Shown here: positions 1-20,420 of the stretch, in pieces | Layout of the letters: each line of letters begins with the position of its first letter | Numbering within the stretch: the stretch's first letter is position 1 | Source: an uncultured Candidatus Saccharibacteria bacterium | GTDB lineage: Bacteria > Patescibacteriota > Minisyncoccia > Minisyncoccales > UBA1441 | Assembly (NCBI GenBank): GCA_964437355.1 | Contig: CAYTGH010000001.1 | Location: 1 to 26,819, forward strand | Reading direction: 5' to 3' | DNA: 26,819 bases | Position numbers and translations under genes: made by a program | The notes under the pieces: model-generated | Seen by the model: the letters and a program-made list of their open reading frames with translations, nothing else | The model's database searches: none | Told to the model about the DNA's origin: nothing

Positions 1-55
1 AAGTCTCTTAATAGTAATTATGAGCCCTAGTAAAGTCTCTTAATAGTAATTATGA
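1..55 (+). repeat. 32-bp tandem repeat (about 1.7 units visible, may extend upstream of the window) ending in the dnaA start codon
   Basis: AAGTCTCTTAATAGTAATTATGA occurs at 1-23 and 33-55 (period 32). The ATG of the second copy is the dnaA start at 52. Confidence 0.95.
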
Positions 56-1419
56 CAAAAGAAGAGCTCTGGGAATCCGTTTTAGCTCAACTTCAATTTA
101 AAGTTTCTAAAGCTAATTTTGCCACCTGGCTAAAGAACACCAGAATCACCCAAATGACAAATGGGGAGGTATATGTTGCTGTTCCTAATACTTTTTCTCG
201 TGAGTGGCTAAGTAAAAAATATCATCATTCTATTTTTGAGGTTTTACGAGAAGTAGATCCCCAAATAAAAAGCATCAAGTATATTATCCAAAAGGATCTG
301 GTTTCTGGAAAGAAATCATCCAAGCCAAACACTCAGCCATCTTCTCGTCCTTCCTTAAAAAACGAGCAGTCGGCCTTTGAAGAACTAAAAATTAATTCTC
401 AAACTAATCTCAACCCCCGTTATACCTTCGAACAATTTGTTATCGCCCCTTTTAATGAATTAGCCCAGGCAAGTGCTTGGGCTGTTACTAAAAATCCGGG
501 ACGGGTTTACAATCCTCTCCTTATTTACGGAGGCGTCGGTTTGGGAAAAACCCATTTGCTTCAAGCTATCGGTAACGGAGTTGATGCCGTGGCTGGTTTT
601 AGAATTCAATATCTATCATCAGAAAAATTGGTTTCCTCCATTGTTTCTAGTATTAGAAATCACAGCATTCAAGAATTAAAAGATAATCTTTGCCGCTTAG
701 ATATGATAATTGTTGACGATGTCCAATTTATGGCTGGCAAGGAAAAAACTCAAGAAGAATTCTTCCATATTTTTAACGCTCTTTACGAACGCAATAAACA
801 GATTGTTCTGTCTTCGGACCGACCCCCCAGCGCTATTGCTACTCTTGAAAAAAGACTCCAATCTCGTTTCGAGGGAGGCATGATCGCTGATATCAGCCAG
901 CCTGATTATGAAAGTCGCTTGGCTATTTTGGAAACCAAAGCTCAAGAATTAGACACAGAAATAGAGGCCGAGGTTTTATCTTATGTTGCTAATAACGTTC
1001 AAAAAAACATTAGAACATTAGAAGGAGCTATTCATCGAATTCGAGCTTATCAGAAACTCCATAACGAATCTCTCTCTCTGAGCAAGGCTAAAACCCTCCT
1101 TAAGGACTTGGCTGGATCTCCGCCAAAGATAACAACTCCTCAAAAAATCTTCAGCGCTGTCGCCGGTTATTACAATCTTAATCAGCAAGAATTATTTTCG
1201 GTAACACGCAAAAGAGAAATTGCTTGGCCAAGACAAGTAGCTATGTATTTTTTACGCAAGGAATTAAGAAAATCCTTCCCTCATATTGGAACAATATTTG
1301 GAGGAAAAGACCATACGACAGCTATTTATGCTTACAGAAAAATAGAAAAGCAGATAGAAGATGACGAGCAAACAGCCGAAGAAATTCATTTAGTTAAACA
1401 GAGGATTTATGCTGAATAA
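52..1419 (+). CDS. dnaA: Chromosomal replication initiator DnaA
   Basis: N-terminal LWESVL...FATWL, Walker A GGVGLGKTHL, IVDDVQF, RLQSRF, NIRTLEGA, domain IV RQVAMYF...GGKDHTT. Confidence 0.99.
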   Translation: MTKEELWESVLAQLQFKVSKANFATWLKNTRITQMTNGEVYVAVPNTFSREWLSKKYHHSIFEVLREVDPQIKSIKYIIQKDLVSGKKSSKPNTQPSSRPSLKNEQSAFEELKINSQTNLNPRYTFEQFVIAPFNELAQASAWAVTKNPGRVYNPLLIYGGVGLGKTHLLQAIGNGVDAVAGFRIQYLSSEKLVSSIVSSIRNHSIQELKDNLCRLDMIIVDDVQFMAGKEKTQEEFFHIFNALYERNKQIVLSSDRPPSAIATLEKRLQSRFEGGMIADISQPDYESRLAILETKAQELDTEIEAEVLSYVANNVQKNIRTLEGAIHRIRAYQKLHNESLSLSKAKTLLKDLAGSPPKITTPQKIFSAVAGYYNLNQQELFSVTRKREIAWPRQVAMYFLRKELRKSFPHIGTIFGGKDHTTAIYAYRKIEKQIEDDEQTAEEIHLVKQRIYAE

Positions 1420-1618
1420 AAAGTGGAATTCCTGTGGTGTTTTTAAAGCTGTTTTTGATTCGGAAAAAATAGTCAGTTTTTATTCAGAGAAAATCCACTG
1501 GTAAAATTTAAGCAAAGCCACGTGTTATATATAAAGAAAGCAAAATGCTAAATAATTCACTGTCTAGTAATAACAAGTAATTTAAATTAATAGTATAATT
1601 AATATTATAATAAATACT
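1420..1618. other. Probable replication origin (oriC) in the dnaA-dnaN intergenic region
   Basis: 199-bp gap, the largest in the window, between dnaA and dnaN. It has degenerate DnaA-box-like 9-mers (1422-1430 minus AATTCCACT, 1480-1488 TTATTCAGA, 1491-1499 AAATCCACT, 1553-1561 TAATTCACT) and an extremely AT-rich stretch at about 1566-1618. Confidence 0.7.
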
Positions 1619-2752
1619 ATGAAGTTAAAAGTTTTAAAAGAAGAATTAACTTTTGGTCTTAGTGTTGTTAGTCGTATTGCTACTCGCAATCCTAACTTGC
1701 CTATTTTAGAAGGGGTTTTATTGAATGCTGAGAAGAACTCTCTTTCTTTAACGACTACGGATTTGGAAGTGGGGACGAAGTGGTGGGTCTTAGCTAAAGT
1801 GGAAAAACCAGGGAAAGTGGTTATTCCGGCTCGAGTTGTTTCAGATTTAGTAAAATTGATTAGCGATCGAGAGCTTCAATTAGAGTCGGATAAAAAAAGT
1901 CTTCTTATTAAATATCAAAACGGGGAAAATCAAATTCAGGGATTAGAAGTCAATGATTTTCCTCTTTTACCCGAAGCCGAAGGAAAAACTTCGGTATGGG
2001 TTGATAGTTTTAAATTTTGCCAGGGGTTAAAACAAATACTCTATTGCGTTGCTTCTTCTGAAAGCCGTCCAGAAATCTCCGGGGTTTATTTACAATTTGA
2101 AGCCAAGCGCATTATCATGGTGGCCACGGATAGCTTTCGCTTAGCTGAAAAAATAGTCGAGCCAGTAGAAAAAGTGCAAGGGGATATTAAAAAACTTACT
2201 TTTATTCTTCCGGTCAAAACAGCTCAGCAGGTTATTGCCGTTTTTGAGACAATGGGAAAATCAATAAAAATTTATCTTTCCCCCGATCAAATGGTGTTCG
2301 AAAGCGATGTTGATGGTGCTTCTCATCCTCAAGTTCAAATTGTATCAAGACTGATTGAGGGAACTTACCCTGATTATCAAGGAGTTATTCCTAAAAGCTT
2401 TAAAACCAATGTCAAACTTTCACGCTCTCAATTATTGAATAAAATCAAGGCGGCTAATTTATTTAGCGATCAGGTGCGCGAAGTGCAATTAGCCATTCGT
2501 CCTAAGGAGAAGAAAGTATATATTGAATCTCGCAGTACGAAAATCGGAAAAAGCAAAGCATCTATTTCAGCTACTATTAAAGGAGAGGATTTAGATATTT
2601 CTTTTAATAGTAAATATCTTATTGACGTTCTCAGCAATCTTAGCAACGAGGAGATAGAGCTTAAACTTAATGATGGGGAGAAAGCTGGTCTTCTAAAACC
2701 AGCCGGAGACACTTTTTACCGCTATGTTCTTATGCCAATTAAATCTGCCTGA
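1619..2752 (+). CDS. dnaN: DNA polymerase III beta sliding clamp
   Basis: NLPILEGVLL, TTTDLE, SRPEISGV, VATDSFRLAE, SRLIEGTYPDY, ISFNSKYLID, C-terminal YVLMPI; follows dnaA. Confidence 0.99.
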   Translation: MKLKVLKEELTFGLSVVSRIATRNPNLPILEGVLLNAEKNSLSLTTTDLEVGTKWWVLAKVEKPGKVVIPARVVSDLVKLISDRELQLESDKKSLLIKYQNGENQIQGLEVNDFPLLPEAEGKTSVWVDSFKFCQGLKQILYCVASSESRPEISGVYLQFEAKRIIMVATDSFRLAEKIVEPVEKVQGDIKKLTFILPVKTAQQVIAVFETMGKSIKIYLSPDQMVFESDVDGASHPQVQIVSRLIEGTYPDYQGVIPKSFKTNVKLSRSQLLNKIKAANLFSDQVREVQLAIRPKEKKVYIESRSTKIGKSKASISATIKGEDLDISFNSKYLIDVLSNLSNEEIELKLNDGEKAGLLKPAGDTFYRYVLMPIKSA

Positions 2753-2753
2753 A

Positions 2754-4652
2754 CTAGGGAATAATTGGCAGAGCCTGTTGCATAAATTGATTCCAAATCC
2801 AGCCGGCGGTAGTGACGGCGGGCACTTTAGCCATTGGAGCCTGATTGTTATTACCCAACCAAACGCCAACGATAATTTTTGAAGTATAGCCAATGACCCA
2901 GGAGTCTCGAAAATCGTCGTTAGTTCCGGTTTTAGCAGCGACTTTATAGCCCGGGACATATAAATTGGAATGATAGCCGAACATTGGCGCTCGATCTTTT
3001 TCACTTGACAAAATATCAGTAATGGTCTGGGCAGTTGCCTCGCTGACCACTTGTCTTTTTTCTTCTTGACTTTGAGCTTGAAAAATAATATCGCCTTGGC
3101 TGTCTTCTATTTTAAGGATATCAAAGGGTTCTACTTTGTAACCGCCAGTGGCAAAAATACCGTAAGCGCTGGTCAGATCCAAGAGCTTGACGCCGCCTCC
3201 TCCAAGGACTAAAGAAGGAACAGCGGGCAAGGATGAAGAAATGCCAGCTGATTCTAAGGTTTGAATGCTGTCTTTTATACCAGCGAGGTATAGGAAAACT
3301 TTAACAGAAGGAACATTCAAAGACTGGGCTAAAGATTGTTTCAGCGTAACCGGTCCTCGAAAACGACCGTCGTAATTACCAGGAACGTAATCTTTGCCTC
3401 CCCAATTTCCGAAATTTGTTTGTTCGTCAATAATAATATGGGAAGGAGAAATTCCTTTTTCAAAAGCAGTAGCGTAAACGAAGGGCTTTAAAGAGGAGCC
3501 AGGGTGTCTTTCACCAAGACGAGCAATATCGAATTGAGGATTAAAAAGGCACTCGTTATTTTCAACTGAGCAACCAGAGGGATACGAATCGTCAGCGAAA
3601 TAATCCTTGGATCCCACGAGGGATAAAACTTCTCCTGTTCGGGGATCAATAGCGACCAAAGAACCATTATATACTTTATAGATTTTGTCTTTTGCTACTC
3701 CATTCTCGATAATTGTCTCAGCCTTTTCTTGGAGGGACCAGTTAAGGGTCGTGTAAACTTTAAATCCGCTTCGCTGGAGCAAGTTCAGTCCATAGGTGGT
3801 TTTTAATTCTTGGACGACATGGAGGGTAAAGTGAGGGGCTCTAAGGAGATGAGCTAGGCTAGAAAACTCGGGTTTCTGTTCCTGTGCTTCGGTCATTTGG
3901 TCTTGGCTGATATATCCTAACAGAGTCATGCGTTGGAGAACATAAGTTCTTCGGTCCGTAAGCTGGTCAAGATGTTGGCCGTAGGGGGAAAGATAACTGG
4001 GTGCTTTAATAAGGGCGGCTAAAGTGGTAGCTTCTACCAAGGAAAGATCGCTTGCCGGTTTATTAAAATAGCCCTGGCTGGCGGTTTCAGCGCCATAAAA
4101 ATTAGAGCCAAAGGGAACTTGGTTCAGGTACCATTCCAAAATTTGTTCTTTACTATATTTTCTTTCTAATTCTAAGCTTAAGATAATTTCTTCGGTTTTC
4201 CTCTTAACTGTTTTTTGATTATTGAGGAAATACGAGCGAATAAGTTGCTGAGTAATAGTTGATCCGCCCTGGGAAGGACTTTGGAGCCTTAAATCAGTGA
4301 GAATAGCTCGCGCTAAGCCGCGAAAATTAAGACCATGATGCTGGTAAAATTGGCCATCTTCGGCTGAGATAACGGCCTGTTGAAGATAGAGGGAAATTTT
4401 CTCTAAAGGAATAACAGTTCTATTTTCTTCGCCAACAATATTGTAAAGCAAAATCTGTCCCGTCTGGTCGTATATTTTAGTTGGCTGGTTGAATTGACTT
4501 TCAGCGAAATCCTCTGGTTGCGGCAATTCGCGGAGGTAGTTTAGGAAGACAACGGAAACAACGGCGGCTGATAACAGCAAGAGTATTATTATGGTTCGGC
4601 TCGTCCAGATAAGAACAGTATATAAAAAATGACGATGCTTGTTTTTTTTCAT
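2754..4652 (-). CDS. Class A bifunctional penicillin-binding protein (PBP1A family transglycosylase-transpeptidase)
   Basis: N-terminal TM; GT51 motifs EDGQFYQHHG, GGSTITQQL, RKTEE, YLN, FYGAETAS; transpeptidase SSLK, SLN, KTGT. Confidence 0.96.
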   Translation of the reverse strand: MKKNKHRHFLYTVLIWTSRTIIILLLLSAAVVSVVFLNYLRELPQPEDFAESQFNQPTKIYDQTGQILLYNIVGEENRTVIPLEKISLYLQQAVISAEDGQFYQHHGLNFRGLARAILTDLRLQSPSQGGSTITQQLIRSYFLNNQKTVKRKTEEIILSLELERKYSKEQILEWYLNQVPFGSNFYGAETASQGYFNKPASDLSLVEATTLAALIKAPSYLSPYGQHLDQLTDRRTYVLQRMTLLGYISQDQMTEAQEQKPEFSSLAHLLRAPHFTLHVVQELKTTYGLNLLQRSGFKVYTTLNWSLQEKAETIIENGVAKDKIYKVYNGSLVAIDPRTGEVLSLVGSKDYFADDSYPSGCSVENNECLFNPQFDIARLGERHPGSSLKPFVYATAFEKGISPSHIIIDEQTNFGNWGGKDYVPGNYDGRFRGPVTLKQSLAQSLNVPSVKVFLYLAGIKDSIQTLESAGISSSLPAVPSLVLGGGGVKLLDLTSAYGIFATGGYKVEPFDILKIEDSQGDIIFQAQSQEEKRQVVSEATAQTITDILSSEKDRAPMFGYHSNLYVPGYKVAAKTGTNDDFRDSWVIGYTSKIIVGVWLGNNNQAPMAKVPAVTTAGWIWNQFMQQALPIIP

Positions 4653-4681
4653 TGGACTCTTAGGACTTCAGCTATTATAAT
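4653..4681 (+). promoter_or_regulatory. Sigma70-type promoter for tyrS, probably leaderless; the -10 is symmetric
   Basis: TGGACT (4653-58), 17 bp, TATAAT (4676-81), with ATG ATG at 4687/4690. ATTATAAT (4674-81) is palindromic, so it also gives TATAAT on the minus strand toward the PBP gene. Confidence 0.6.
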
Positions 4682-4686
4682 AGAAA

Positions 4687-5898
4687 ATGATGGAAAAGAA
4701 TACCCTTAATCAAAAAATTCAAGAGATTTTAGAAAGAGGAGTGGAAAAAGTATATCCTTCTAAATCTTTCTTAAAAGAAAAGTTGCTTACTAAAAAACCG
4801 ATGAAGCTTTACGCCGGTTTGGACCCGACGGCCTCTTCTTTACATATTGGGCACTTGGCCATTTTAAATAAACTGGCTCAATTTCAAAAGCTAGGACATC
4901 AGGTCTTTTTTCTGATTGGAAATTTTACATCCCTTATCGGTGATCCCACGGGACGCTCTGCTGTTCGTCCCCAATTAACCGAAAAAGAGGTTTTAGCTAA
5001 TAGTCGTGTTTTCAAAGAGCAGGCGGAAAAAGTTTTGTCATTTGACTCTCCTAATCCTGCTCGAATAGTTTACAATAGCCAATGGCTTTCTGAATTAACC
5101 TTAAAAGATTTGATTAAGCTGACTTCCCATTTTACGGTTCAACAGATGATGGCGAGAGACATGTTTCAAAAAAGAGTAGCTAGTAAGAAACCGATATTTA
5201 TTCACGAGTTTCTTTATCCAATCTTCCAGGCCTATGACAGCGTCGCTCTCGAAGCGGATATGGAGGTGGGAGGCAATGATCAGACCTTCAATATGCTTTG
5301 TGGCCGATCTTTAGTAAAAGACTTACAACACCGGGAAAAGATTGTTTTGACGGGACAGCTTTTAATAAACGCTGACGGATCTAAAATGAGTAAAACTGCT
5401 TCGAATGCCGTTTTTCTCAGCGACGCTCCGTTAGAAATGTTCGGTAAAATTATGTCTTACCCTGACTCACTAATCGAACCAGCTTTTACTCTTTGTACGC
5501 AGGTTTCTTATGTCGAGGTAAAAAAAATAGGTAAAAATCTGAAGAAGCAAGAAATTAATCCTCGCGATGCTAAAATTCGTCTGGCCCAAGAAATCGTTGG
5601 CATTATCTGGGGGAAGGGAAAAGCCGTCCAAGCGGCTCAAGAATTCCAGCGCATCTTTCAGCAAAAATCATTGCCGTCTGAGATAGTAGAAGTTAAGCTG
5701 TCGAAACGGCGTATTTTGCTCGTTGATTTATTAATAAAAACCCATCTTGCCTCCTCCCATTCGGAAGCTCGAAGGTTAATTGCCCAAGGGGGCATTAAGA
5801 TTAATCAGCAAGTTCAAAGAGAATGGAATCAAGAAGTGGCCATACCCAAAGGTACGATTGTCCAGCGCGGAAAAAGGAAATTCGTGCGAATTCAATAA
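4687..5898 (+). CDS. tyrS: Tyrosine--tRNA ligase
   Basis: YAGLDPTASSLHIGH, YPIFQAYDS, GGNDQTFN, KMSKT, C-terminal S4 domain (SEARRLIAQGGIKIN). Start may be 4690. Confidence 0.98.
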   Translation: MMEKNTLNQKIQEILERGVEKVYPSKSFLKEKLLTKKPMKLYAGLDPTASSLHIGHLAILNKLAQFQKLGHQVFFLIGNFTSLIGDPTGRSAVRPQLTEKEVLANSRVFKEQAEKVLSFDSPNPARIVYNSQWLSELTLKDLIKLTSHFTVQQMMARDMFQKRVASKKPIFIHEFLYPIFQAYDSVALEADMEVGGNDQTFNMLCGRSLVKDLQHREKIVLTGQLLINADGSKMSKTASNAVFLSDAPLEMFGKIMSYPDSLIEPAFTLCTQVSYVEVKKIGKNLKKQEINPRDAKIRLAQEIVGIIWGKGKAVQAAQEFQRIFQQKSLPSEIVEVKLSKRRILLVDLLIKTHLASSHSEARRLIAQGGIKINQQVQREWNQEVAIPKGTIVQRGKRKFVRIQ

Positions 5899-5905
5899 AG
5901 AGTTA

Positions 5906-6844
5906 TTAAGTTCTAGAAAGGGATTTTTTTTGAAAAAATGCAAAGATGCTATTGGCGGCAATAGTGCCTTCGCTAGCAGCGGTAATGATCTGGCGAACAT
6001 TATCCGAGCTATCAGTAATATCTCCCGCGGCCCAAACGTGAGGATTGCTTGTTCTCTGATCTGCCCGAACTTTAATATAACCCTGGGTATTAGTTTCTAA
6101 TGCTAGCTGATTAGTTAATAATTTTTGAGGAATGGTTCCTATCTCAACAAAAATTCCCTGGAGAGGAATTCTTTTTTGTTTTTGATAAGGCTTATCTAAA
6201 ACGACAGCTTCTAAATCTTTTTCTCCTTCAAGAGCAGCAATTTGTCTTTCGTAAATCACTTCGATACGAGGATGATGAGTGACTTGGTTTATCCAGATTC
6301 TTTCTCCATGTAACTGAGGCCCTCGACATATTTGATAAACTTTTTTAGCTATTTTGGCTAAGTAAAGAGAAGCCGTTGTCGCGCTATCTCCACTGCCAAT
6401 AACAGCAACGATTTGATTTTTGTAAAACTGAGCGTCACAAGTAGCGCAATAAGAAAGCCCCTGCCCTAGGAATTTTTTTTCTTCAGGCAATTCTAACCGA
6501 CGATGTTGAGTTCCCGTTGCCAGCAAAATAGTTTCTGCAGAAAAATCTTTGTCCTCACGAGTCTTTAATTGAAAATTCTGCCCAGGAGATATTTTAGTTA
6601 CTTGATCAATTATTATTTGGGTCCCTAATGATTCAGCGTGTTCTCGCATCTTATTGACTATCTCGGCGCCAGAAATATTTTTTTCGGTAGGGAAATTACA
6701 GATTTGATGAGCTTCAGACATAAGTCCGCCCGAAGTAGCCCCGATAATAAGATGATTAATACCATAACGGGAAGCGTAAATCGAAGCGGTTAGCCCGGCC
6801 GGACCGGCTCCAATAATAATCAAAGGGTATTCCTTGTTTTCCAT
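5906..6844 (-). CDS. trxB: Thioredoxin-disulfide reductase family flavoprotein
   Basis: IIGAGPAGLTASIY FAD motif, GLSYCATCDA redox CxxC, VWAAGDIT, QIITAASEG. Confidence 0.93.
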   Translation of the reverse strand: MENKEYPLIIIGAGPAGLTASIYASRYGINHLIIGATSGGLMSEAHQICNFPTEKNISGAEIVNKMREHAESLGTQIIIDQVTKISPGQNFQLKTREDKDFSAETILLATGTQHRRLELPEEKKFLGQGLSYCATCDAQFYKNQIVAVIGSGDSATTASLYLAKIAKKVYQICRGPQLHGERIWINQVTHHPRIEVIYERQIAALEGEKDLEAVVLDKPYQKQKRIPLQGIFVEIGTIPQKLLTNQLALETNTQGYIKVRADQRTSNPHVWAAGDITDSSDNVRQIITAASEGTIAANSIFAFFQKKSLSRT

Positions 6845-6853
6845 AACAACTTT

Positions 6854-8083
6854 TTAAATTTTTCCTCTTAATTTTTCAGCGGTTAAGATTCTTCTAATGG
6901 CTAAAAGATAAGCCGCTGTCTTTAAGCTTATTTTTTGATGATGTTCTTTCTGGAGAGAAAGAACCCGAATCCAATTATTAATCATTTTTTCTTTTAGGAG
7001 CTTAGCTAAGTAGTCTTCCGCTAAAATATTTCCGGTTTTATTCTGGCACCATTCAAAATAGCTTACAATAACTCCACCAGAATTCACTAATACGTCTGGA
7101 ACAACAGTGATGTTTTTCGAAAAAAGTTGCTTCTCGGCAGAATAGGTAACCGGCCCGTTAGCCACTTCAACAATGTAAGAAGCATTAATTTTACCCACAT
7201 TTTTTTCGGTAATTTGGTTCTCAAGAGCGGCGAGGATGAGAATATCTACCGGAAGTTCAAGAATTTTTTGATTACTAATCGGTTGTCCTTTAGAATAATT
7301 AACAACAGATCCTTTTTCCTTTTTAGTTTTTCCCACCGCTACAATATCCAAACCATTTTTGTCATAGATTCCACCTTGGCTATCGCTGACGGCTACTATT
7401 TTGAAATGATTTTGATTTAACATTTGGGCCAAGTTAGCACCAGCATTGCCAAATCCCTGCATGGCAATCTTGAGGTGGCTTTTAGGCAAGCGATAAGTTT
7501 TTATTATTTCTTGGATAATAAAAAATCCTCCTTTAGCCGTGGCATCTGCCCTGAGTTTTAAACCGCCAAGAATTAAAGGCTTTCCGGTAATCATTGCTGG
7601 TTCGTGATGGCCAGTTTTCTTTTCATATTCGTCTAACATCCAAGCCATGGTCTGTGAATTTGTATAAACATCGGGAGCGGGAATATCTTTGTCTTGCCCC
7701 AGAACTGGGTAAAAGAAATCAATGAATTTACGGCTGATAATTTCTTGCGTCTTTAAAGAAGTTTTTTTCGGATTAAACTTGACAGCTCCTTTAGCTCCGC
7801 CATAAGGAATTTCCACTAAAGCGTTTTTGATAGTCATCCAAAAAGATAAAGAAGTTACTTCATCTTGATTTGCTTGCGGATGAAAACGGATGCCTCCTTT
7901 GCCCGGGCCGAGAGCATCATTAAAAAGAACGCGCCAAGCGGGATAAGCTTTCCCTTGAACCCTTAAAATCGTTTTTTTGACCCTCTGAGGATGAGAAAGC
8001 AATTGGACCTCTTTGGAGGACAATCGGTCAATTTTTTGGACCTCTTTAAGATAATAACGAATATTATTAAAGGTGTTGTTCAT
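6854..8083 (-). CDS. gdhA: Glu/Leu/Phe/Val dehydrogenase, most likely glutamate dehydrogenase
   Basis: GPGKGGIRFHP, MTIKNA, PYGGAKG, DIPAPDVYT, TGKP, QGFGNAG, EVANGP, PDVLVNSGGVIVSYFEW. Confidence 0.92.
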   Translation of the reverse strand: MNNTFNNIRYYLKEVQKIDRLSSKEVQLLSHPQRVKKTILRVQGKAYPAWRVLFNDALGPGKGGIRFHPQANQDEVTSLSFWMTIKNALVEIPYGGAKGAVKFNPKKTSLKTQEIISRKFIDFFYPVLGQDKDIPAPDVYTNSQTMAWMLDEYEKKTGHHEPAMITGKPLILGGLKLRADATAKGGFFIIQEIIKTYRLPKSHLKIAMQGFGNAGANLAQMLNQNHFKIVAVSDSQGGIYDKNGLDIVAVGKTKKEKGSVVNYSKGQPISNQKILELPVDILILAALENQITEKNVGKINASYIVEVANGPVTYSAEKQLFSKNITVVPDVLVNSGGVIVSYFEWCQNKTGNILAEDYLAKLLKEKMINNWIRVLSLQKEHHQKISLKTAAYLLAIRRILTAEKLRGKI

Positions 8084-8090
8084 GGTAAGT

Positions 8091-8444
8091 TTAGTTTTTC
8101 GATGTTTGAATATTTTTTAGAATTTCTTCTAATTCTTGCTGAAGAGCTTCTTTGGGCCTTAAGCCGATAAATTCTCGGATTATCTCCCCCTTGTAGAATA
8201 GTTTCATATTGGGAATACTGCGAATTTGATACTGGCCAGCTAAGTTAAGATTTTCTGGAATTTCGGTATTTAATTTAGCAATTCTTATTTTATCTTGCAT
8301 TTCATCGGCGATGCTTTCTAAGGCCGGCGCCATTAAAAGACAAGGCTGGCACCAAGGAGCCCAAAAATCCACGAGAACAGGAAGATCTGATTGTAAGACC
8401 TCCTTGTCAAAATTTTGGCTATTGACTTCAATAGATTGAGACAT
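8091..8444 (-). CDS. trxA: Thioredoxin
   Basis: FDKEVLQSDLPVLVDFWAPWCQPC and cis-Pro motif RSIP. Confidence 0.96.
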   Translation of the reverse strand: MSQSIEVNSQNFDKEVLQSDLPVLVDFWAPWCQPCLLMAPALESIADEMQDKIRIAKLNTEIPENLNLAGQYQIRSIPNMKLFYKGEIIREFIGLRPKEALQQELEEILKNIQTSKN

Positions 8445-8450
8445 GGTAGT

Positions 8451-8693
8451 TTATTTTTTAAGTATTTCTCGAAGAAGGAATTCCCACTCTTTTTTCTTTT
8501 TAACATTAAAAGAATAAAAACAGGCCTTGAAATGGTCCTGCAAATATAATTCAGTAATTTTTTTAATGGCCGCTTGAGCCGCTGATAATTGCTCAATGAC
8601 TTGACGGCAATTGGCTTCTTTTTCGATAAGCCGGCTGATTCCGTCTATTTGTCCCTTAATGATGTTGAAACGTTGGGGAAGACTTCTTGGCAT
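8451..8693 (-). CDS. CsoR/RcnR/FrmR-family (DUF156) transcriptional repressor
   Basis: RFNIIKGQIDGISRLIE...C29..VIEQLSAAQAAI...H54xxxC58, the C-H-C fingerprint; 80 aa; first gene of the operon. Confidence 0.93.
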   Translation of the reverse strand: MPRSLPQRFNIIKGQIDGISRLIEKEANCRQVIEQLSAAQAAIKKITELYLQDHFKACFYSFNVKKKKEWEFLLREILKK

Positions 8694-8700
8694 CTAAATC

Positions 8701-8730
8701 ACTATATACCCCCCGAGGGTATATTGTCAA
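8701..8730 (-). promoter_or_regulatory. Sigma70 promoter of the csoR-trxA-gdhA-trxB operon (leaderless)
   Basis: Minus strand: TTGACA (8730-8725), 18 bp, TATAGT (8706-8701), 7 bp, ATG (8693). Confidence 0.85.
8704..8724. promoter_or_regulatory. CsoR-family operator
   Basis: Perfect inverted repeat ATATACCC-CCCGA-GGGTATAT with C/G tracts, matching the TACCC-N-GGGTA type operators of CsoR/RicR/CstR. It lies across the promoter spacer directly upstream of the CsoR-family gene. Confidence 0.88.
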
Positions 8731-8755
8731 GTTTTATTGAAAAGGTTATTTTTAT

Positions 8756-9259
8756 TTATCTTCCCTGAGAATTATCCAACCATTGATTCTTGATAAGAAA
8801 ACAGAGAGAGGTTCCTAAAGCATCAGCGGCGTGATCGGGTTCTGGTTTATGATCAAGTTTTAATATTTTCTGAACAGCTTCTTGAACTTCTTGCTTTTCT
8901 GCTCGTCCGTAGCCAGTGAGAATTAGTTTTATTTCTACTGGTGAAAATTCATAAACGGGGAGTTGCGCTTTTTCGGCTACGAGCAGAATAACGCCTTTTG
9001 TTTGACTAACGCTCATAACAGATTTCTGATTTTTAAAAAAGTAAAGGCTTTCAACGGTTAAAATATCGGGCTGATAAAGACGCACTATTTTCGATAGACT
9101 TTTTTCGACTATCCTTAAGCGGAAAGCGTCTTCTCGGTCCGAAGGAGTGATGATTGTTCCGTAATTTAAAAGGACTATTTTCTTTGAAGCGTCTTCAACT
9201 TTCACTAATCCATAACCGATAGCGGCGGCTCCGGGATCAATGCCAAGAATGGTAACCAT
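8756..9259 (-). CDS. ruvC: Crossover junction endodeoxyribonuclease RuvC
   Basis: ILGIDPG, VESLYFFKN, EFSPVEIK, GYGRAEKQEV, DHAADAL. Confidence 0.97.
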   Translation of the reverse strand: MVTILGIDPGAAAIGYGLVKVEDASKKIVLLNYGTIITPSDREDAFRLRIVEKSLSKIVRLYQPDILTVESLYFFKNQKSVMSVSQTKGVILLVAEKAQLPVYEFSPVEIKLILTGYGRAEKQEVQEAVQKILKLDHKPEPDHAADALGTSLCFLIKNQWLDNSQGR

Positions 9260-9969
9260 TAGCTTGCGTTAGTGTAAACCTCTTGAATATCTTCTTCTTC
9301 GATAGATTGCAAAAAGTTGTCTAATTTTTTTTGATCTCCCGGTTTCAAGGTAATAGTTTCCTTGGGGACCCAGCCGATAGAAGAAGAATCGATGGTGTAT
9401 CCTTGTTTTTCTAAAGATTCAACTACTTGTTGTAAATCCTGGGGCTTGGTGTAAATCACGAGGTGATCATCCTGTTTTTGAATATCTTCAGCGCCAGCCT
9501 CAATCAACTCTAATTCTAAATCATCGCTCAAATTGTATGATTCTGGTAAATGAATTAGTCCTTTTTGTTCAAAAAGCCATTTTACTGAACCAGCTTCGGC
9601 TAATTTCCCGCTAGTCTGATTGAGAATTTTGTGGAGATGTTCTCTGACCCGATTCTTGTTATCGGTAATAGCCTCAATAATTAAAGCTGTTTTTCCGGGG
9701 CCGAAGGCTTCATAAACAACTTCTTCTAAATTCCCTTCTTGGCGACTGACGGCTCTTTGAATGGCCCTCTCAACGCTTTTGGCGGGCATATTAACCGCCT
9801 TCGCTTTATCCAGAGCCGCCTGAAGAGCGGGATTGCCGGCCGGCGTCGGACCTTGTTTTTGGACAGCAACCGTGATGAACCGAGAAATTTTTGAAAAAAC
9901 CTGGCTCTTTTTCAAATCTTCGGTTTGCTTTTGATGTTTAATTGATGACCAATGAGAATGTCCGCTCAT
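9259..9969 (-). CDS. yebC: YebC/PmpR family protein
   Basis: MSGHSHWSSIKH, NPALQAAL...NMP, YEAFGPG, TDNKNR, GSVKWLFE; classical yebC-ruvC linkage with a TAATG overlap. Confidence 0.97.
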   Translation of the reverse strand: MSGHSHWSSIKHQKQTEDLKKSQVFSKISRFITVAVQKQGPTPAGNPALQAALDKAKAVNMPAKSVERAIQRAVSRQEGNLEEVVYEAFGPGKTALIIEAITDNKNRVREHLHKILNQTSGKLAEAGSVKWLFEQKGLIHLPESYNLSDDLELELIEAGAEDIQKQDDHLVIYTKPQDLQQVVESLEKQGYTIDSSSIGWVPKETITLKPGDQKKLDNFLQSIEEEDIQEVYTNAS

Positions 9970-10092
9970 AATTACTATTAAGAGAATTTATTAAGACTCA
10001 TAATTACTATTAAGAGAATTTATTAAGACTCCTAATTACTATTAGAAGATCTACTGATCTTCCTAATTACTATTAAAAGGATTTACTAAGAC
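9966..10092 (-). repeat. Four-unit 31-32 bp tandem repeat filling the whole gap upstream of yebC; same family as the repeat at 1-55
   Basis: Plus-strand units start at 9966, 9998, 10030 and 10061. Units 1-2 are identical (TCATAATTACTATTAAGAGAATTTATTAAGAC) and units 3-4 are diverged. The proximal unit supplies the yebC ATG. Confidence 0.95.
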
Positions 10093-10779
10093 TTATAATT
10101 TTCTTTTTAAAAACAAAATAATAGCGATACTCAATATGCCAAAACCTAGGCCCAGCCCCAAAACCAACCATTTCTGAAGAGGTTTGGGCGTTTGATTACC
10201 TAAAATTAGATTACTCGGTTCGGGTGAAAATGTCAACTGCTCAAGGAAAAAATCTTCTTGGTTGGAATTGCTATCAAGATAACAGTTTTGGAATCGTTTT
10301 CTCTTTAGGAGTTGATTAGCTTCTGGATTTTGCGCAAAAGGATTTCCTTCACTTAAGGGGTTGTTTCCGGTTCCCCAAGCCACGGCGTCTATAATAGTGC
10401 CCTGGGAATTTAATAAAGCAATGCTGTTATTGAGAGAGAGAGTCGCTTGGCTTTGATATTGAGCTTGAATAAGTTTTGCAAACTCGTCTTTTGAATTAGC
10501 CCAAGTTAAATATTCCCCCGGTTCAATTTGGCTTTCAGAAGGAAAAACCCTTAGAGAATATTCTTTTCCTTCCCGGCTTCTTTTTCTTAGGCGGAAATTT
10601 TGAATATCAACAGTCTCGGCCGTTGGATTATAAATTTTTATGTAGTCTTGGGAAGACTGCGATCCGGCTATCTGAATTTCAACGATTAACAGATGATTGT
10701 TTTTTGTTTGAGCGGAAGAAAGCAAAAGAGGAAAAACAAAGAAGAACAAAACAAGCCAAAGAAAAATTTGTTTTTTCAT
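10093..10779 (-). CDS. Secreted, C-terminally membrane-anchored lamin-tail-domain (LTD) protein
   Basis: Signal peptide; LLIVEIQ...DYIKIYNPT...VDIQNFRL, IALLNSQGTIIDAVAWG, DSNSNQEDF typical of LTD; C-terminal TM followed by KRK. Confidence 0.8.
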   Translation of the reverse strand: MKKQIFLWLVLFFFVFPLLLSSAQTKNNHLLIVEIQIAGSQSSQDYIKIYNPTAETVDIQNFRLRKRSREGKEYSLRVFPSESQIEPGEYLTWANSKDEFAKLIQAQYQSQATLSLNNSIALLNSQGTIIDAVAWGTGNNPLSEGNPFAQNPEANQLLKRKRFQNCYLDSNSNQEDFFLEQLTFSPEPSNLILGNQTPKPLQKWLVLGLGLGFGILSIAIILFLKRKL

Positions 10780-15423: not shown

Positions 15424-17368
15424 AACAAGACTCGAGAAGCAGATTCTTCTCAAGAACATTGCTCTTCAAGTCCGGATGAGGAAACTTATTCTTCCCTTAT
15501 TAGCTATTGTTCTGTTGTTTTTTAATGTTTTTTCTCCGCCAGTGGCTTCCACTGTTCTTGGCAGTATTTTAGTTCTCTTTTCTTTTAGCCTGTTTTTCTT
15601 CGCGGCCCTCTATGTAAAAAAGACGCCCTCTTTAAGCCTATCAGCCATCCGTCAAATTTTAGTGAACATTATCTTTTTAGAATTATTGGCGGCTTGGGCT
15701 GGTTTCTATTTTTTTAGCTTTGTAGTTAACAGCTGGCTTATTCCTATTGCTTTTCCAGCTTCATTGTTGAGTATTTTTTATCTTGTTTTGATTTCTCCTC
15801 TTTTGGAAGACCTATATCGAACTTTTTTCTACCTAATCAGTTGGTTAGGATTAACTTTTCTTATTCTTCTCAATCATTCTTCGTTTGTAGAATCGGTGAG
15901 TGCTCGTAAGTTTAATACAGATATTATTAGTTCTTCGAGTCTTGTTTCCATTGTCTTAGCCGGAATAGCTATTTTTGGAGTAAGAATTATTATTAGTTCT
16001 ACTCAAGATCAATCTCATTGGCAAAGCGGTGGGTTAAGAAAAGTTAATCAAAAACTTCAGAATAAACTAGAAGAGAAAGATGAATCGATATTTCAACTTA
16101 GAAGAGAATTGCGAGAAACCAGAGAAATTCTTCAGATTAGAACTCTGGCCAGAGGCAAAGAATTGAAGAACCTGACTAAGAATTTTCAGAAAATGCTCAG
16201 TAAGCAAAAAGACAACCTGCAAGCGGAAGACGAAAGACGAAACAAGATTCAAGAAGCCCAGGAAACAACAAAAGCCCTTCTCAACGTTCTTGAGGATAAC
16301 GAAAAAGACAGAGAGAAACTAATGCAAGAAGAGGAATTAACAACAACGATTATTAATAATTTTGTGGACGGGCTCATTATTTTTGATCCTCAAGGAATTA
16401 TTCAAGAAGTTAATAAGCAGGCCCAGCACGTTTTTCATATTCAAGAAAATGACGTTCAGAAACAACCATTGGCTATTCTTCAAAAATATTCTCTGATTGC
16501 CCCCGCGGTGAAAATCATGATTCACGATAATCATGTTCAATTAGTGAAAGAAAAAGAATTTTCTCCACAACCCGCCATGACGATGACGGTCAGTATCATT
16601 GCTTTGCAAGGCAAAGAGCGCCGCCTGGGTTATCTCGCTGTTTTCCATGATGTATCCCGGGAAAAAAATATTCAAAAGATGAAAACGGATTTTGTTTCTA
16701 TTGCGGCTCATCAATTAAGAACGCCACTTTCAGCCATCAAATGGAGTATTAAAATGATTTTAGACGGAGAGGCCGGAAAAATCTCAGCTAAACAAAAAGA
16801 TTGGCTTAATAAAACCTATCAAAGCAACGAACGTATGATTGCCCTGGTTAATGATCTTTTAAACGTGAGCCGCATTGAAGAAGGAAAGTTTCTTTATGAT
16901 GTCCAAGAAATAGATTTAAGAAGTGTTATTCAGAATGTTCTTCATAATGACGAAGAAATTATTAAAAGAAAAAAGATGACGGTTTCTTTTCAAGGGGAAA
17001 ACAAGGAAATCCCCAAGGTGAAAGTTGATGTTGAGAAAATTCAGTTAGCAATTCAGAATTTAGTGACTAACGCCATTGATTATACTCCGGCTGGGGGAAA
17101 AGTCGTTATTACTCTTGATCAGAAGGGTAGGGATGTTTTGGTAAAAGTGAAAGATACCGGCATTGGTATTTCAAAAGAGGATCAAAAGAAGCTCTTCCAT
17201 AGATTTTTTCGGGCTCGTAATGCAATTCAAGTACGAGCTAACGGGACCGGGTTGGGTCTATTTATCACCAAAAATATTGTCCAAGCCCATCGTGGAAAAA
17301 TCTGGTTTGAATCTGAATTAGGGAAAGGAACTACTTTTTATCTGACTATCCCTAGCTCCCAGAGTTGA
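15407..17368 (+). CDS. Membrane sensor histidine kinase (TM - coiled coil - PAS-like - HisKA - HATPase)
   Basis: FVSIAAHQLRTPL H-box, QNLVTNAIDY N-box, VKDTGIGI, FFRA, GTGLGL, GKGTTF. Confidence 0.96.
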   Translation: MEEENKTRLEKQILLKNIALQVRMRKLILPLLAIVLLFFNVFSPPVASTVLGSILVLFSFSLFFFAALYVKKTPSLSLSAIRQILVNIIFLELLAAWAGFYFFSFVVNSWLIPIAFPASLLSIFYLVLISPLLEDLYRTFFYLISWLGLTFLILLNHSSFVESVSARKFNTDIISSSSLVSIVLAGIAIFGVRIIISSTQDQSHWQSGGLRKVNQKLQNKLEEKDESIFQLRRELRETREILQIRTLARGKELKNLTKNFQKMLSKQKDNLQAEDERRNKIQEAQETTKALLNVLEDNEKDREKLMQEEELTTTIINNFVDGLIIFDPQGIIQEVNKQAQHVFHIQENDVQKQPLAILQKYSLIAPAVKIMIHDNHVQLVKEKEFSPQPAMTMTVSIIALQGKERRLGYLAVFHDVSREKNIQKMKTDFVSIAAHQLRTPLSAIKWSIKMILDGEAGKISAKQKDWLNKTYQSNERMIALVNDLLNVSRIEEGKFLYDVQEIDLRSVIQNVLHNDEEIIKRKKMTVSFQGENKEIPKVKVDVEKIQLAIQNLVTNAIDYTPAGGKVVITLDQKGRDVLVKVKDTGIGISKEDQKKLFHRFFRARNAIQVRANGTGLGLFITKNIVQAHRGKIWFESELGKGTTFYLTIPSSQS

Positions 17369-17392
17369 TTAGGTTGAGAGAAATGATACAAT
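17365..17392 (+). promoter_or_regulatory. Putative promoter for the response regulator-mutM-holA unit
   Basis: TTGATT (17365-70), 16 bp, extended -10 TGaTACAAT (17384-92). Confidence 0.5.
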
Positions 17393-17453
17393 TAATTTTG
17401 GACTATTATTTTTTTAGGGGAAAGTGTTTATTTTTTAGAAAAAATTTGCTATA

Positions 17454-17840
17454 ATGGTAAAAAGGATTCTTGTCTTAACAGAAGAAAAGTTAGTTTCTAA
17501 TCTTTTGAAAAAAAGATTATCCGATGAAGACTATCAGGTTGTTATTAGTGATGATCCTGAAAAAGCATTAGTGATCATTATCCGGGAGAAGATTAATTTG
17601 ATTGTTCTTGATTTGGATCTTTCTGACTTAACCGCTTTTAGTTTTTTAGTCAAAAAGAAAAGTGATTCAGATCTTAAAAAAATTCCTGTTTTAGTTATTT
17701 CTAATGCTGGACAAATTGGAGAATTAAGCCAAGCGCAGGAATTAGGAGCAACAGATTGGGTTCTCAAAACGGAGTTTGACCCTGGAGAAATTGCCCAAAA
17801 AGTAAAGAATATTTTTAAATCAATTAAAGCAACTAGTTAA
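17454..17840 (+). CDS. Single-domain receiver protein, atypical
   Basis: CheY-like fold pattern: ILVLTEE, LIVLDL, IPVLVISN, LGATDWVLK. Confidence 0.88.
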   Translation: MVKRILVLTEEKLVSNLLKKRLSDEDYQVVISDDPEKALVIIIREKINLIVLDLDLSDLTAFSFLVKKKSDSDLKKIPVLVISNAGQIGELSQAQELGATDWVLKTEFDPGEIAQKVKNIFKSIKATS

Positions 17841-17851
17841 TTTTTAAAATC

Positions 17852-18277
17852 ATGGCAAGCCTAAATTCTTTTCAAGATTCTTCAAAAACAGTTCTTTCTT
17901 CAGTGAAGAAAGTCCTCATTATCGAAGACGATATTTTTCTAAGCGAGCTTATGGCTAAGAAATTGGAAGATTCGGGATTTAATGTCATTAAAGCTATCGA
18001 TGGGCAGGAAGGTTTAGAAAAAGCAGTTTCAACTAAGCCCGATTTGATTCTTCTAGATTTGATTTTGCCAGGTTTGGACGGTTTTGAGGTTTTGAAACGG
18101 ATTAAAGACAACGCCCAAATAAGTTCTATTCCGGTTATTATTCTCTCTAATCTTGGACAGAGAGAGGATATCGAAAGGGGTTTTGACTTGGGGGCGCAAG
18201 ATTACTTAGTCAAAGCGCAGTTTACTCCGGATGAAATCGTAGAGAGAGTTAAGAAACCGTTGGAGGCTCATGCCTGA
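17852..18277 (+). CDS. Single-domain CheY-like response regulator
   Basis: VLIIEDD, PDLILLDLILPGLDGFEVL, IPVIILSN, GAQDYLVK. The true start may be the later GTG (VKKVLII). Confidence 0.95.
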   Translation: MASLNSFQDSSKTVLSSVKKVLIIEDDIFLSELMAKKLEDSGFNVIKAIDGQEGLEKAVSTKPDLILLDLILPGLDGFEVLKRIKDNAQISSIPVIILSNLGQREDIERGFDLGAQDYLVKAQFTPDEIVERVKKPLEAHA

Positions 18278-19154
18278 ACTACCCGAAGTAGAAACAATGA
18301 AGAGAGAATTGCAGAAAAAGGTCCAAGGGAGGGCCTTTCTTGATGTTTGGACCGATACGCCAAAATTAGTTTACCATCCTTCTTCTTTTCTGGCATTTAA
18401 GAGAGAAATCAAGAATCTAAGAATTCAGAAAGTGGAAAGAAAAGGCAAGGTTCTTGTCCTTTACTTAACTCAGGAGAAAGTTCTTTTAGTTCATCCTAAA
18501 TTAACCGGGCATTTTATTTTGGGCCACTGGGTTTATAAACGTCAGAAATGGGAGCCAAATTTGCCAGATCAATATATCCATTTAATGTTCTGGCTAGACA
18601 ATCAAGAAATGTTAGCTTGGTCAGACCTAAGAAAATTTTCTCGAATAGAAATTCAACCCCTTCAAGAAATTGAAAAGACTCCTTTATTAAAAAATATCGG
18701 ACCGGATCCACTCTCCGTTGAATTTTCATTTCTAAAATTGCAGCAACTTCTCGGAAAGACTCAAAGACCGATTAAGGTTGTCTTAATGGATCAATCTCTC
18801 ATAGGAGGCATCGGCAATATTTACGCAAATGAAATTTTATGGGCGGCTAAGATTTATCCGGGTCGGAAATCCTTTTTGCTTACTCGAGAAGAGGGAAAGA
18901 AAATTTATCAGGCGATGCGAAAGATATTAAAAGAAGCGGTGGAATTAGAAGGAACCAGTGTTAGTGATTTCAGAGGATTGGATAATCAGCCCGGCCGGTA
19001 CCTTTCTCGTCTTAAGGTTTATCGCCGAATAGGAAAGCCTTGCCCGTGTTGTGGTCACCCAATTGAAAAAAGAGAAATGAGAGGTCGTTCCGTCTATTAT
19101 TGTCCCCTTTGTCAACCAAAAAGCGATAATGAAAATGTTTTCTCAAACTTCTGA
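18270..19154 (+). CDS. mutM: Formamidopyrimidine-DNA glycosylase Fpg/MutM
   Basis: N-terminal PELPEVE, RKGK, DLRKFS, H2TH LMDQSLIGGIGNIYANEILW, C-terminal zinc finger CPCC...CPLCQ. Confidence 0.97.
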   Translation: MPELPEVETMKRELQKKVQGRAFLDVWTDTPKLVYHPSSFLAFKREIKNLRIQKVERKGKVLVLYLTQEKVLLVHPKLTGHFILGHWVYKRQKWEPNLPDQYIHLMFWLDNQEMLAWSDLRKFSRIEIQPLQEIEKTPLLKNIGPDPLSVEFSFLKLQQLLGKTQRPIKVVLMDQSLIGGIGNIYANEILWAAKIYPGRKSFLLTREEGKKIYQAMRKILKEAVELEGTSVSDFRGLDNQPGRYLSRLKVYRRIGKPCPCCGHPIEKREMRGRSVYYCPLCQPKSDNENVFSNF

Positions 19155-19182
19155 TCTAAACGGAAAACGTTTAAATAAAACT

Positions 19183-20145: not shown

Positions 20146-20380
20146 GGCGAGATTTTTTCCGGCTAGCGGTATTTTTTTTCAGAATGTTGACTTTAGCTGC
20201 TTTGTCTATGGCTTTATAATATTGACCAAGTAAAGCTTTTGCATCTTCAAATTTTTTGTTTTCGGCTAAGCGCGTAATTTCTTTACGAACTTCCTTCATC
20301 TTTTTTTTGTAATGAAGATTTTGCTTTTGGCGCTTAAGACTTTGGAGCATCGATTTTTTGGCAGATTTAGTAATAGGCAT
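20102..20380 (-). CDS. rpsT: 30S ribosomal protein S20
   Basis: MPITKSAKK...IDKAAKVNILKKNTASRKKSRL. Confidence 0.97.
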   Translation of the reverse strand: MPITKSAKKSMLQSLKRQKQNLHYKKKMKEVRKEITRLAENKKFEDAKALLGQYYKAIDKAAKVNILKKNTASRKKSRLSAWLNLQSVKENH

Positions 20381-20420
20381 AGTTTCTAAATTTGAATACT
20401 TTATTCTAAACTAAAATTCC

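Follow-up and report, generated by a model that had tools for sequence, protein, structure and literature searches.

The window analysed here (26,819 nt of contig CAYTGH010000001.1, assembly GCA_964437355.1) comes from a Saccharibacteria-like member of the candidate phyla radiation (CPR) and carries, directly in front of the start codons of dnaA and yebC, two tandem arrays of a 32-nt repeat unit with the family consensus ATGAGTCTTAGTAAATCCTCTTAATAGTAATT. The arrays, which we read directly from the sequence, occupy positions 1-51 (+) and 9970-10096 (-), respectively (Table 1), and the window opens part-way through the dnaA array, since this is where the contig ends. An earlier reading made from the letters of the window alone (hereafter the sequence-only reading) had described tandem 32-bp arrays on opposite strands at these two genes, with dnaA and yebC units that are identical at 28 of 32 positions and each contain TAGTAA twice, 16 nt apart. 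All of this holds: Tandem Repeats Finder detects a 32-nt period at 9965-10100 (4.3 copies, 80% matches), a repeat search pairs 1-55 with 9966-10020 as a 55-nt inverted repeat of 91% complementarity, Pfam assigns the genes, and direct reading returns the same identities and spacing. It was also correct that the yebC array occupies the whole gap between the yebC ATG and the stop codon of the upstream gene, which encodes a lamin-tail domain (LTD). The 19-mer TCTCTTAATAGTAATTATG, allowing up to 3 mismatches, gave seven matches against 0.02 expected from shuffles. A 3-mismatch match to the core within dnaN (2600-2618, +), with no ATG after it, was judged to be chance.

Each 32-nt unit consists of an ATG (3 nt), six codons (18 nt), the stop cluster TAA TAG TAA (9 nt) and a closing TT (2 nt), and the ATGA of the next unit contributes another in-frame TGA. 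Read directly, all three frames are stopped within a unit, by TGA at 2-4, TAG-TAA at 9-14 and TAA-TAG-TAA at 22-30. Each full unit also resembles the start of a gene, ATGAG being preceded by an AU-rich leader of about 25 nt (TTAGTAAATCCTCTTAATAGTAATT); in tandem arrays, each unit ATG begins a seven-codon mini-cistron whose stops are the TAA-TAG-TAA of the next leader, and the first stop of this mini-open reading frame (mini-ORF) lies 8 nt from the following ATG. Both 16-nt halves of the unit have T..TAGTAA.T in common, and TAGTAA recurs with a period of 16 nt along the arrays. The 16 nt preceding the ATG read TCTCTTAATAGTAATT, with no purine-rich GGAGG-like Shine-Dalgarno (SD) motif 5-10 nt upstream. 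Among 27 distinct units, positions 4, 13-15, 18, 21-24 and 31-32 are invariant, while positions 6-7, 10-12 and 16-17 are variable. A conserved peptide product was considered and rejected: the variability does not fall at third codon positions of the mini-ORF and the 19 distinct ATG-bearing units encode 15 different heptapeptides, so the peptide itself is not the product under selection.

With the exception of the hairpin of one palindromic unit, the arrays fold no better than shuffled sequence (z -0.5 and -0.4). The consensus, read directly, has no terminal inverted repeats, and an Rfam search of 133 kb of DNA from the lineage at gathering thresholds returned tRNAs only, leaving the repeat without a match. 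The ATGA/TTATGAG repeats that flank the arrays could be either a target duplication or simply the register of the repeat. The palindromic unit, 31 nt in length (GAAGATCAG[C/T]AGATCTTC; window 10034-10064 (-), L002 6410-6440), occurs only in the dnaA and yebC arrays of the species from which the window comes (the source species).

The two arrays belong to a dispersed family tied to start codons, as the sequence-only reading had supposed. We found the unit at 13 distinct genes, always co-oriented with its gene, and ending at the ATG or within 1 nt of it in every case except yebC in L029, where 8 nt intervene; the remaining departures from exact abutment are one 1-nt deletion and one 1-nt insertion. 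A metagenome scan with the pattern CTCTTAATAGTAATTATGA yielded 18 loci, six of them chance matches in unrelated DNA and 12 (G+C 0.37-0.44) with units ending at the ATG of a real gene: rpmJ (after infA), rpsD (after rpsK), rpoC (after rpoB), rpsP, trmD, a LysM-M23 peptidase gene, the yebC of a relative, and dnaA. A profile hidden Markov model made from 17 units added further diverged single copies, all ending at start codons, at PrgI-like, TraC-like and type IV secretion system pilin-like genes 3-9 kb upstream of dnaA in the source genome, as well as at a 208-aa gene and rpsD. Finally, we scanned 185,579 species genomes with an ATG-free pattern, and the source genome was not among the matches; about 69 of the 74 matches were chance hits in unrelated taxa, and real units were confined to two 'Candidatus Saccharibacteria' metagenome-assembled genomes, where they precede trmD (3 or 5 units), rpsD (2) and adk (2).

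The ATG-free pattern serves as a control on the link with start codons: over the genome and viral scans, an ATG follows seven of seven matches in the lineage versus two of 77 chance matches. In viral contigs only the core was matched, seven times and by chance; no match extended to a full unit or had an ATG after it, and there was no sign of a phage vector. Carriage is sparse, as only about five of some 45-50 genes in the contiguous region available from the source genome (~45 kb) have a unit, and the 8 kb of source contig past the window hold no further copies. In the literature that we searched, no such repeat is described for Saccharibacteria, Patescibacteria or CPR bacteria.

Three small observations accompany this census. 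The 8 nt at yebC in L029 (1505-1512, ATGAAATT), between the last unit and the ATG, create a three-codon ORF (MKL) that overlaps the true start. In L001, three copies of a distinct small repeat (AAATCTTTTTT, 915-960) occupy the gap upstream of the PrgI-like gene's unit. Members of the Bacillus cereus group (L039, L047, L070, L088, L095, L106 and others) have a 20-nt core, AAAGCCTCTTAACAGTAATT, at one conserved locus with no full unit, and this core is therefore unrelated to the repeat family.

The sequence-only reading had proposed checking copy number and extending the contig upstream of base 1, and other assemblies bear on both points. The exact DnaA protein is carried by 17 other contigs and the exact YebC protein by 22 others (ENA, JGI, Logan and NCBI assemblies). 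Complete dnaA alleles have 2, 5, 6 or 7 units, and on the upstream side of the array long contigs continue with ~230 nt and then a divergent rnpA; yebC alleles have 3 or 4 units, the 3-unit allele being without any ATG-bearing unit. Complete dnaA arrays always start with the palindromic unit and differ mostly in the count of identical gene-proximal ATGAGCCC units, and many contigs, the window included, terminate within runs of identical units. The polarized expansion at the gene-proximal end that had been suggested earlier is thus what strains display. The accompanying claim, that distal units have diverged from ATG to AGG, was right as to divergence and needs correcting as to the letters, since the distal yebC units read ATA, AGG and AGG. 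The fourth yebC unit is exactly the product of a 32-nt duplication of unit 3 plus yebC's own ATG. Copy number also varies at trmD (3 or 5 units) and rpsD (1 or 2). As the dnaA alleles carry different flanking single-nucleotide polymorphisms (SNPs), they represent different strains and not collapsed assemblies. The arrays gain and lose whole units between strains, and the register of duplication takes in the ATG of the gene.

Relatives show filled and empty sites at the same junctions. YebC homologues form a clade of ~11 clusters at identities of at least 65%, followed by a gap down to 54%, and synteny is conserved throughout this clade. At the LTD-yebC junction, where the source species (YebC 100%) has 3-4 units, L112 (YebC 79% identical to the source) has 2.6 units with a variant core (TTTTAATCTCAATT) in which every ATG has become ATA, L113 (76%) a 24-nt remnant, L114 (71%) one unit and L029 (65%) 3 units; L115 (65%) has no unit, the stop of the LTD gene overlapping the yebC ATG as ATGA (AAATTATGAGTGG). 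The sequence-only reading had the repeat supplying the start codons of dnaA and yebC, and here it fails: the N-termini MTKEELW (DnaA) and MSGHSHW (YebC) are identical in repeat-free relatives, so that the start codons are ancestral and the repeat copies rather than supplies them, unit 4 having copied the ATG of yebC. At dnaA, L112, L114 and L115 are unit-free and all share with the source species both MTKEELW and a conserved promoter-like TGcTAAGAT; the dnaA array is therefore a recent gain in the source species. Because its palindromic first unit otherwise occurs only in the yebC array, the dnaA array appears to have been seeded from the yebC array, 10 kb away and on the opposite strand.

Copies have moved between loci, as follows from this shared palindromic unit together with a linked substitution pair (TAACAGTAGTT) that recurs at rpmJ, trmD and prgI. 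Further empty sites are the prgI-traC junction, which is short and has no unit in L116, and the junction of an 824-aa and a 486-aa gene, likewise short and unit-free in relatives. Insertion took place at stop/start junctions that in relatives are short or overlap as ATGA. Where a unit is present, the TGA stop of the upstream co-oriented gene often overlaps the first unit's ATG as ATGA (infA, S11 in L020, the LTD gene in L029). At one junction that holds a unit in the source genome, L114 has an AT-rich filler of the TAATAAATAA type (20374-20424), which may be a decayed unit.

Table 1. Repeat units of the dnaA and yebC arrays and the genes that adjoin them in the window.
Feature	Position	Strand	Remarks
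Partial unit, 3' 19 nt only	1..19	+	Truncated by contig end; dnaA array extends further upstream in other assemblies
Complete 32-nt unit ATGAGCCCTAGTAAAGTCTCTTAATAGTAATT, dnaA-proximal	20..51	+	Sequence reading; profile score 36.8 bits
Mini-ORF of dnaA-proximal unit: MSPSKVS, stop TAA, then TAG TAA	20-43	+	
dnaA	52..1419	+	Pfam DnaA; ATG at 52 stands where the next unit's ATG would be; N-terminus MTKEELW
yebC (TACO1/YebC family)	9259..9969	-	Pfam; ATG 9969-9967 immediately 3' of unit 4
yebC unit 4, gene-proximal, ATGAGTCTTAATAAATTCTCTTAATAGTAATT, mini-ORF MSLNKFS	9970..10001	-	Missing in 3-unit allele
yebC unit 3, AGGAGTCTTAATAAATTCTCTTAATAGTAATT, ATG -> AGG, hence no mini-ORF	10002..10033	-	
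yebC unit 2, 31-nt palindromic variant AGGAAGATCAGTAGATCTTCTAATAGTAATT	10034..10064	-	8-bp hairpin, two GATC sites
yebC unit 1, ATAAGTCTTAGTAAATCCTTTTAATAGTAATT	10065..10096	-	LTD-gene stop TAA (10095-10093) at the unit's TGA/ATG junction position
LTD gene (lamin-tail domain), upstream of and co-oriented with yebC	10093..10779	-	Pfam

The family resides in genomes with no enrichment of SD motifs. SD-like 4-mers stand upstream of three of 37 source genes, against a background of 9.8%, and are at background in relatives (2/20, 2/21 and 1/21); the outgroup, at 54% YebC identity, has 4/17. Gaps between same-strand genes lie mostly between -26 and +13 nt, in relatives as in the source. TATAAT-like boxes occur 5-7 nt before the ATG of tyrS, dnaN and a csoR-like gene, a proximity that suggests leaderless starts, and the lineage appears to start translation by coupling, on leaderless mRNAs or from AU-rich leaders.

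Starting from the observed location, anatomy, copy-number polymorphism, empty sites and SD-less context, we hold, with confidence a little above even, that this is a clade-specific 32-bp repeat family that lives at start codons in the manner of mycobacterial interspersed repetitive units (MIRUs), acting as an SD-independent mini-cistron start cassette that is variable in copy number and has spread between stop/start junctions. A role or constraint at the level of translation is indicated by the exact co-oriented abutment on ATG, the operon-internal sites and the absence of promoter features, and also by the position of units downstream of promoter-like motifs at dnaA and the LysM-M23 gene. On the RNA, the unit would suffice by itself as a start site that needs no SD: ribosomes leaving the upstream cistron or unit would terminate at the stop cluster and initiate again at the AUG a few nt further on or, alternatively, would load de novo on the unstructured leader. 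As a stop-start distance of ~20 nt abolishes coupling in E. coli and Haloferax (Huber 2023, PMC10666635), a plain 32-nt insert at an ATGA junction would uncouple the flanking genes unless it brought an ORF of its own. The intact unit does so: it opens with ATGA, and its mini-ORF stops 8 nt short of the next ATG, a distance inside the natural gap range of the genome. Insertion or expansion would leave the gene unsilenced, as the unit recreates a start, and this could be why units are tolerated, and possibly useful, at start codons; copy number may in addition tune translation. Units might reach new TT^ATGA junctions via recombination or template switching, with array length changing via slipped-strand mispairing in a register that includes the ATG. 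The sequence-only reading had offered a choice between a shared initiation module and a self-amplifying element that targets start codons. Both ideas are live, the former not as a general initiation signal given the roughly five carriers among 45-50 genes, and they probably describe a single phenomenon from two sides, as has been proposed for MIRUs.

The MIRU parallel is one of behaviour. According to PMC12548453, citing Supply 1997, MIRUs 'insert themselves at start codons' and contain an internal ORF coupled to the gene. As there described, they share with the present family short tandem direct repeats at many loci, placed between co-oriented genes and exactly at start codons, a small ORF per unit in the orientation of the flanking genes, apparent mobility, and strain variation in copy number as variable-number tandem repeats. 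The differences begin with the host, a Saccharibacteria-like CPR clade of ~39% G+C with no SD enrichment, and extend to the AT-rich unit of 32 nt, to the loss of the internal ATG from many copies, and to the end of the mini-ORF, which here is TAA-TAG-TAA 8 nt before the ATG, the -4 ATGA overlap of those descriptions occurring only at the 5' edge of some arrays. MIRUs are ~46-101 bp long and G+C-rich. With a host that is not mycobacterial and a CPR-like gene content, these are not MIRUs proper, and the likeness is drawn from descriptions of MIRUs. The statement in the sequence-only reading that this is not a named repeat family therefore stands for the sequence, but the behaviour has a known analogue; what is new is the sequence, host, unit size, stop-cluster design and SD-less context.

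Other known systems resemble the repeat in part. Coupling by upstream open reading frames and the bicistronic design (BCD) likewise place the end of a short leader cistron beside a gene start, where it delivers ribosomes or unfolds the start and makes initiation independent of the gene's own context; however, BCD and most natural cases use an SD in the leader cistron and a stop-start overlap, whereas the repeat has no SD and a cistron of seven codons, is tandem, and is dispersed as a family. The SD-independent 'Kozak-like' initiation regions of Bacteroidetes and leaderless initiation, reportedly described by Baez et al. 2019 and Nakagawa et al., have in common with it the lack of SD enrichment, an AU-rich unstructured region before the ATG and an A at -3. 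The Kozak-like regions are short degenerate preferences at most genes, in contrast to a near-identical 25-32 nt at a minority of genes and in tandem. REP/BIME, ERIC, Correia and RUP/BOX elements are also short, non-autonomous, dispersed intergenic repeats, some of which affect neighbour expression, but they are palindromic or have terminal inverted repeats, mostly occupy the 3' ends of genes or stand at no fixed distance, and do not abut the ATG with single-nt precision; the repeat has no terminal inverted repeats and only one palindromic variant unit. Contingency loci, with phase-variable tandem repeats in promoters and 5' regions, likewise owe their strain-to-strain differences in copy number to slippage. 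Their units are usually 1-7 nt, locus-specific, and alter promoter spacing or frame, whereas here they are 32 nt, shared among loci, and leave frame and ATG spacing unchanged.

Several points weigh against the start cassette. First, every functional step (ribosome behaviour, the effect of copy number, the mechanism of spreading) is our inference. Second, upstream units are without ATG in the yebC 3-unit allele, in all L112 units and in the copies at prgI, traC and the 208-aa gene, so a pure termination-reinitiation relay cannot be the whole story; combined with the distance rule for coupling, these copies mean that such genes must initiate de novo, and that the leader alone must permit an SD-independent start. 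Third, 8 nt separate the stop of the mini-ORF from the next ATG, unlike the -4 overlap of MIRUs. Fourth, an unchanged 32-mer ATGAGTCTTAGTAAATCCTCTTAATAGTAATT is present in genomes that share only 65% identity in YebC and 41% at four-fold sites, so that more than slippage, drift or recent descent holds the consensus; this implies a sequence-specific constraint on the unit, from either a trans-acting partner or a requirement of mobilisation. Fifth, the metagenome scan pattern included ATGA and that subset of loci is biased accordingly, the profile matches and the genome scan being free of this bias, and the census as a whole covers ~250 kb of fragments, not a complete genome.

Such constancy of sequence is what would be expected of a dedicated ribosome-binding leader, a sequence-specific SD substitute of ~25 nt read by an rRNA segment, ribosomal protein or initiation factor, with the arrays as a side-effect. 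The unit is much more conserved than the surrounding genes, as the 32-mers at 65% YebC identity attest; it has invariant positions and a fixed distance to the ATG in a genome with no SD enrichment; ATG-less single copies still stand before genes; and many hosts are highly expressed housekeeping genes (rpmJ, rpsD, rpsP, rpoC, adk, trmD). Yet only ~10% of the sampled genes carry a unit, and the set of genes differs between relatives, dnaA having the unit in the source only and yebC being empty in L115. Copies are moreover decaying in some lineages (the variant core of L112, the remnant in L113), and no complementary RNA was found in the examined loci, where a search likewise turned up neither the 16S rRNA of the clade nor an initiator tRNA, the latter sought for pairing of its anticodon loop with UUAUGAG. 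Among CPR bacteria, the anti-SD motif is reported to be less often detected only in a Parcubacteria subgroup (PMC9297842), which also speaks against a substitute for it. On balance we consider a dedicated leader unlikely. An extended form, in which the ~25-nt leader would be a new ribosome-recruitment signal that replaces the SD as a portable cassette, and array length a heritable, rapidly mutable translation dial for dnaA and core genes, strikes us as improbable to the same degree.

A regulon operator receives little credence from us. Under this explanation a DNA- or RNA-binding regulator, or a small RNA, would bind the unit through TAGTAA half-sites every 16 nt and co-regulate growth genes, and a long conserved motif common to replication, transcription and ribosomal genes, with its regular 16-nt period, would fit. 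But the set of carrier genes is not conserved among close relatives; strict co-orientation, exact abutment on the ATG and copy variation by whole units are unexpected of operators; and no antisense copy or partner RNA turned up at the examined loci, both strands of which were searched.

Slightly less credible again is a promoter module, in which each unit would start a leaderless or near-leaderless transcript at the next ATG. A leaderless promoter likewise needs single-nt spacing to the ATG and would explain the exact abutment, the genome has leaderless arrangements (tyrS, dnaN, csoR-like), and some unit junctions, read directly, are variants with TATAAG or TATGAG. Against this, scans for sigma-70 promoters and for terminators came back empty for the repeats of both arrays, with no -35/-10 pair at a spacing of 16-18 nt, and the hexamers suitably placed for a -10, 5-8 nt from the transcription start (TTAATA, TAATAG, CTTAAT), lack the A2 or the T6 that are key to such a hexamer, while promoters of TTGACA/TATAAT type elsewhere in the genome make the sigma factor look standard. 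Many copies, besides, are internal to operons (infA-rpmJ, rpsK-rpsD, rpoB-rpoC), and the conserved promoter-like TGcTAAGAT of dnaA lies upstream of its array. At the LysM-M23 gene we read TTGACA-N16-TAGGGT upstream of the unit, which the promoter scan did not flag and which would place the unit inside the transcript.

Finally, the idea that the arrays are assembly, adapter or chimera artefacts can be dismissed with near certainty: the window does start, and many contigs do end, within an array, as is typical of repeats that break short-read assemblies, but the same arrays with the same unit order lie inside long contigs of independent samples, assemblers and data centres (ENA megahit, JGI, Logan, NCBI), with conserved genes on both flanks and alleles distinct in their flanking SNPs, and related species have related arrays at other genes.

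How bacteria without SD motifs choose start codons, especially inside operons, is still an open question, and for CPR/Patescibacteria we know of nothing experimental on the matter. If the start-cassette reading is correct, the repeat would be a natural, compact and near-identical cassette in front of a dozen or more essential genes, and its natural series of 0-7 copies, together with the ATG-to-AGG/ATA mutants, would provide constructs that set termination-reinitiation against de novo SD-independent initiation. It would also be an independent second example of the MIRU lifestyle, that of a repeat surviving only at start codons through its own mini-cistron, which would make this lifestyle a recurrent evolutionary solution, not a mycobacterial oddity. 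More practically, the arrays offer copy-number markers that tell strains of an uncultured lineage apart; they also break short-read assemblies at dnaA, and the unit ATGs can mislead gene callers on start sites.

Other features of these loci deserve brief mention. In the window, the gap between dnaA and dnaN (1394-1620) holds an inverted repeat (1394-1425/1474-1505) and AT-rich repeats of ~12 nt (1585-1620) that run up to the dnaN ATG, and may be an unwinding element or origin. DnaA boxes (TTATCCACA, at most one mismatch) occur at chance level, with no cluster in the dnaA-dnaN gap and none in the arrays. The repeat unit was considered as an oriC box and rejected, as DnaA boxes are at chance and the unit is also present at rpmJ, rpoC and further genes. 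Immediately before the trmD array of L030 we read a hairpin, ACAGTGC...GCACTGT with a 13-nt loop, followed by TTTTT (6780-6827). It was not flagged by the terminator scan; should it act as a terminator, trmD would depend on a start signal inside the array. The divergent gap between the PBP1A gene and tyrS contains the palindrome CTATTATAATAG (4653-4686), with TATAAT 5 nt before the tyrS ATG suggesting a leaderless start. In L116, the outgroup's VirB4/TraG-like ATPase (16270-20061) contains an intein, with Intein_splicing and LAGLIDADG matches. Lastly, upstream of a csoR-like repressor gene (8451-8693), the reverse strand at 8694-8745 reads TTGACA-N18-TATAGT-N7-ATG, with the perfect palindrome ATACCCTCGGGGGGTAT between the hexamers, which looks like an autoregulatory operator on a leaderless promoter.

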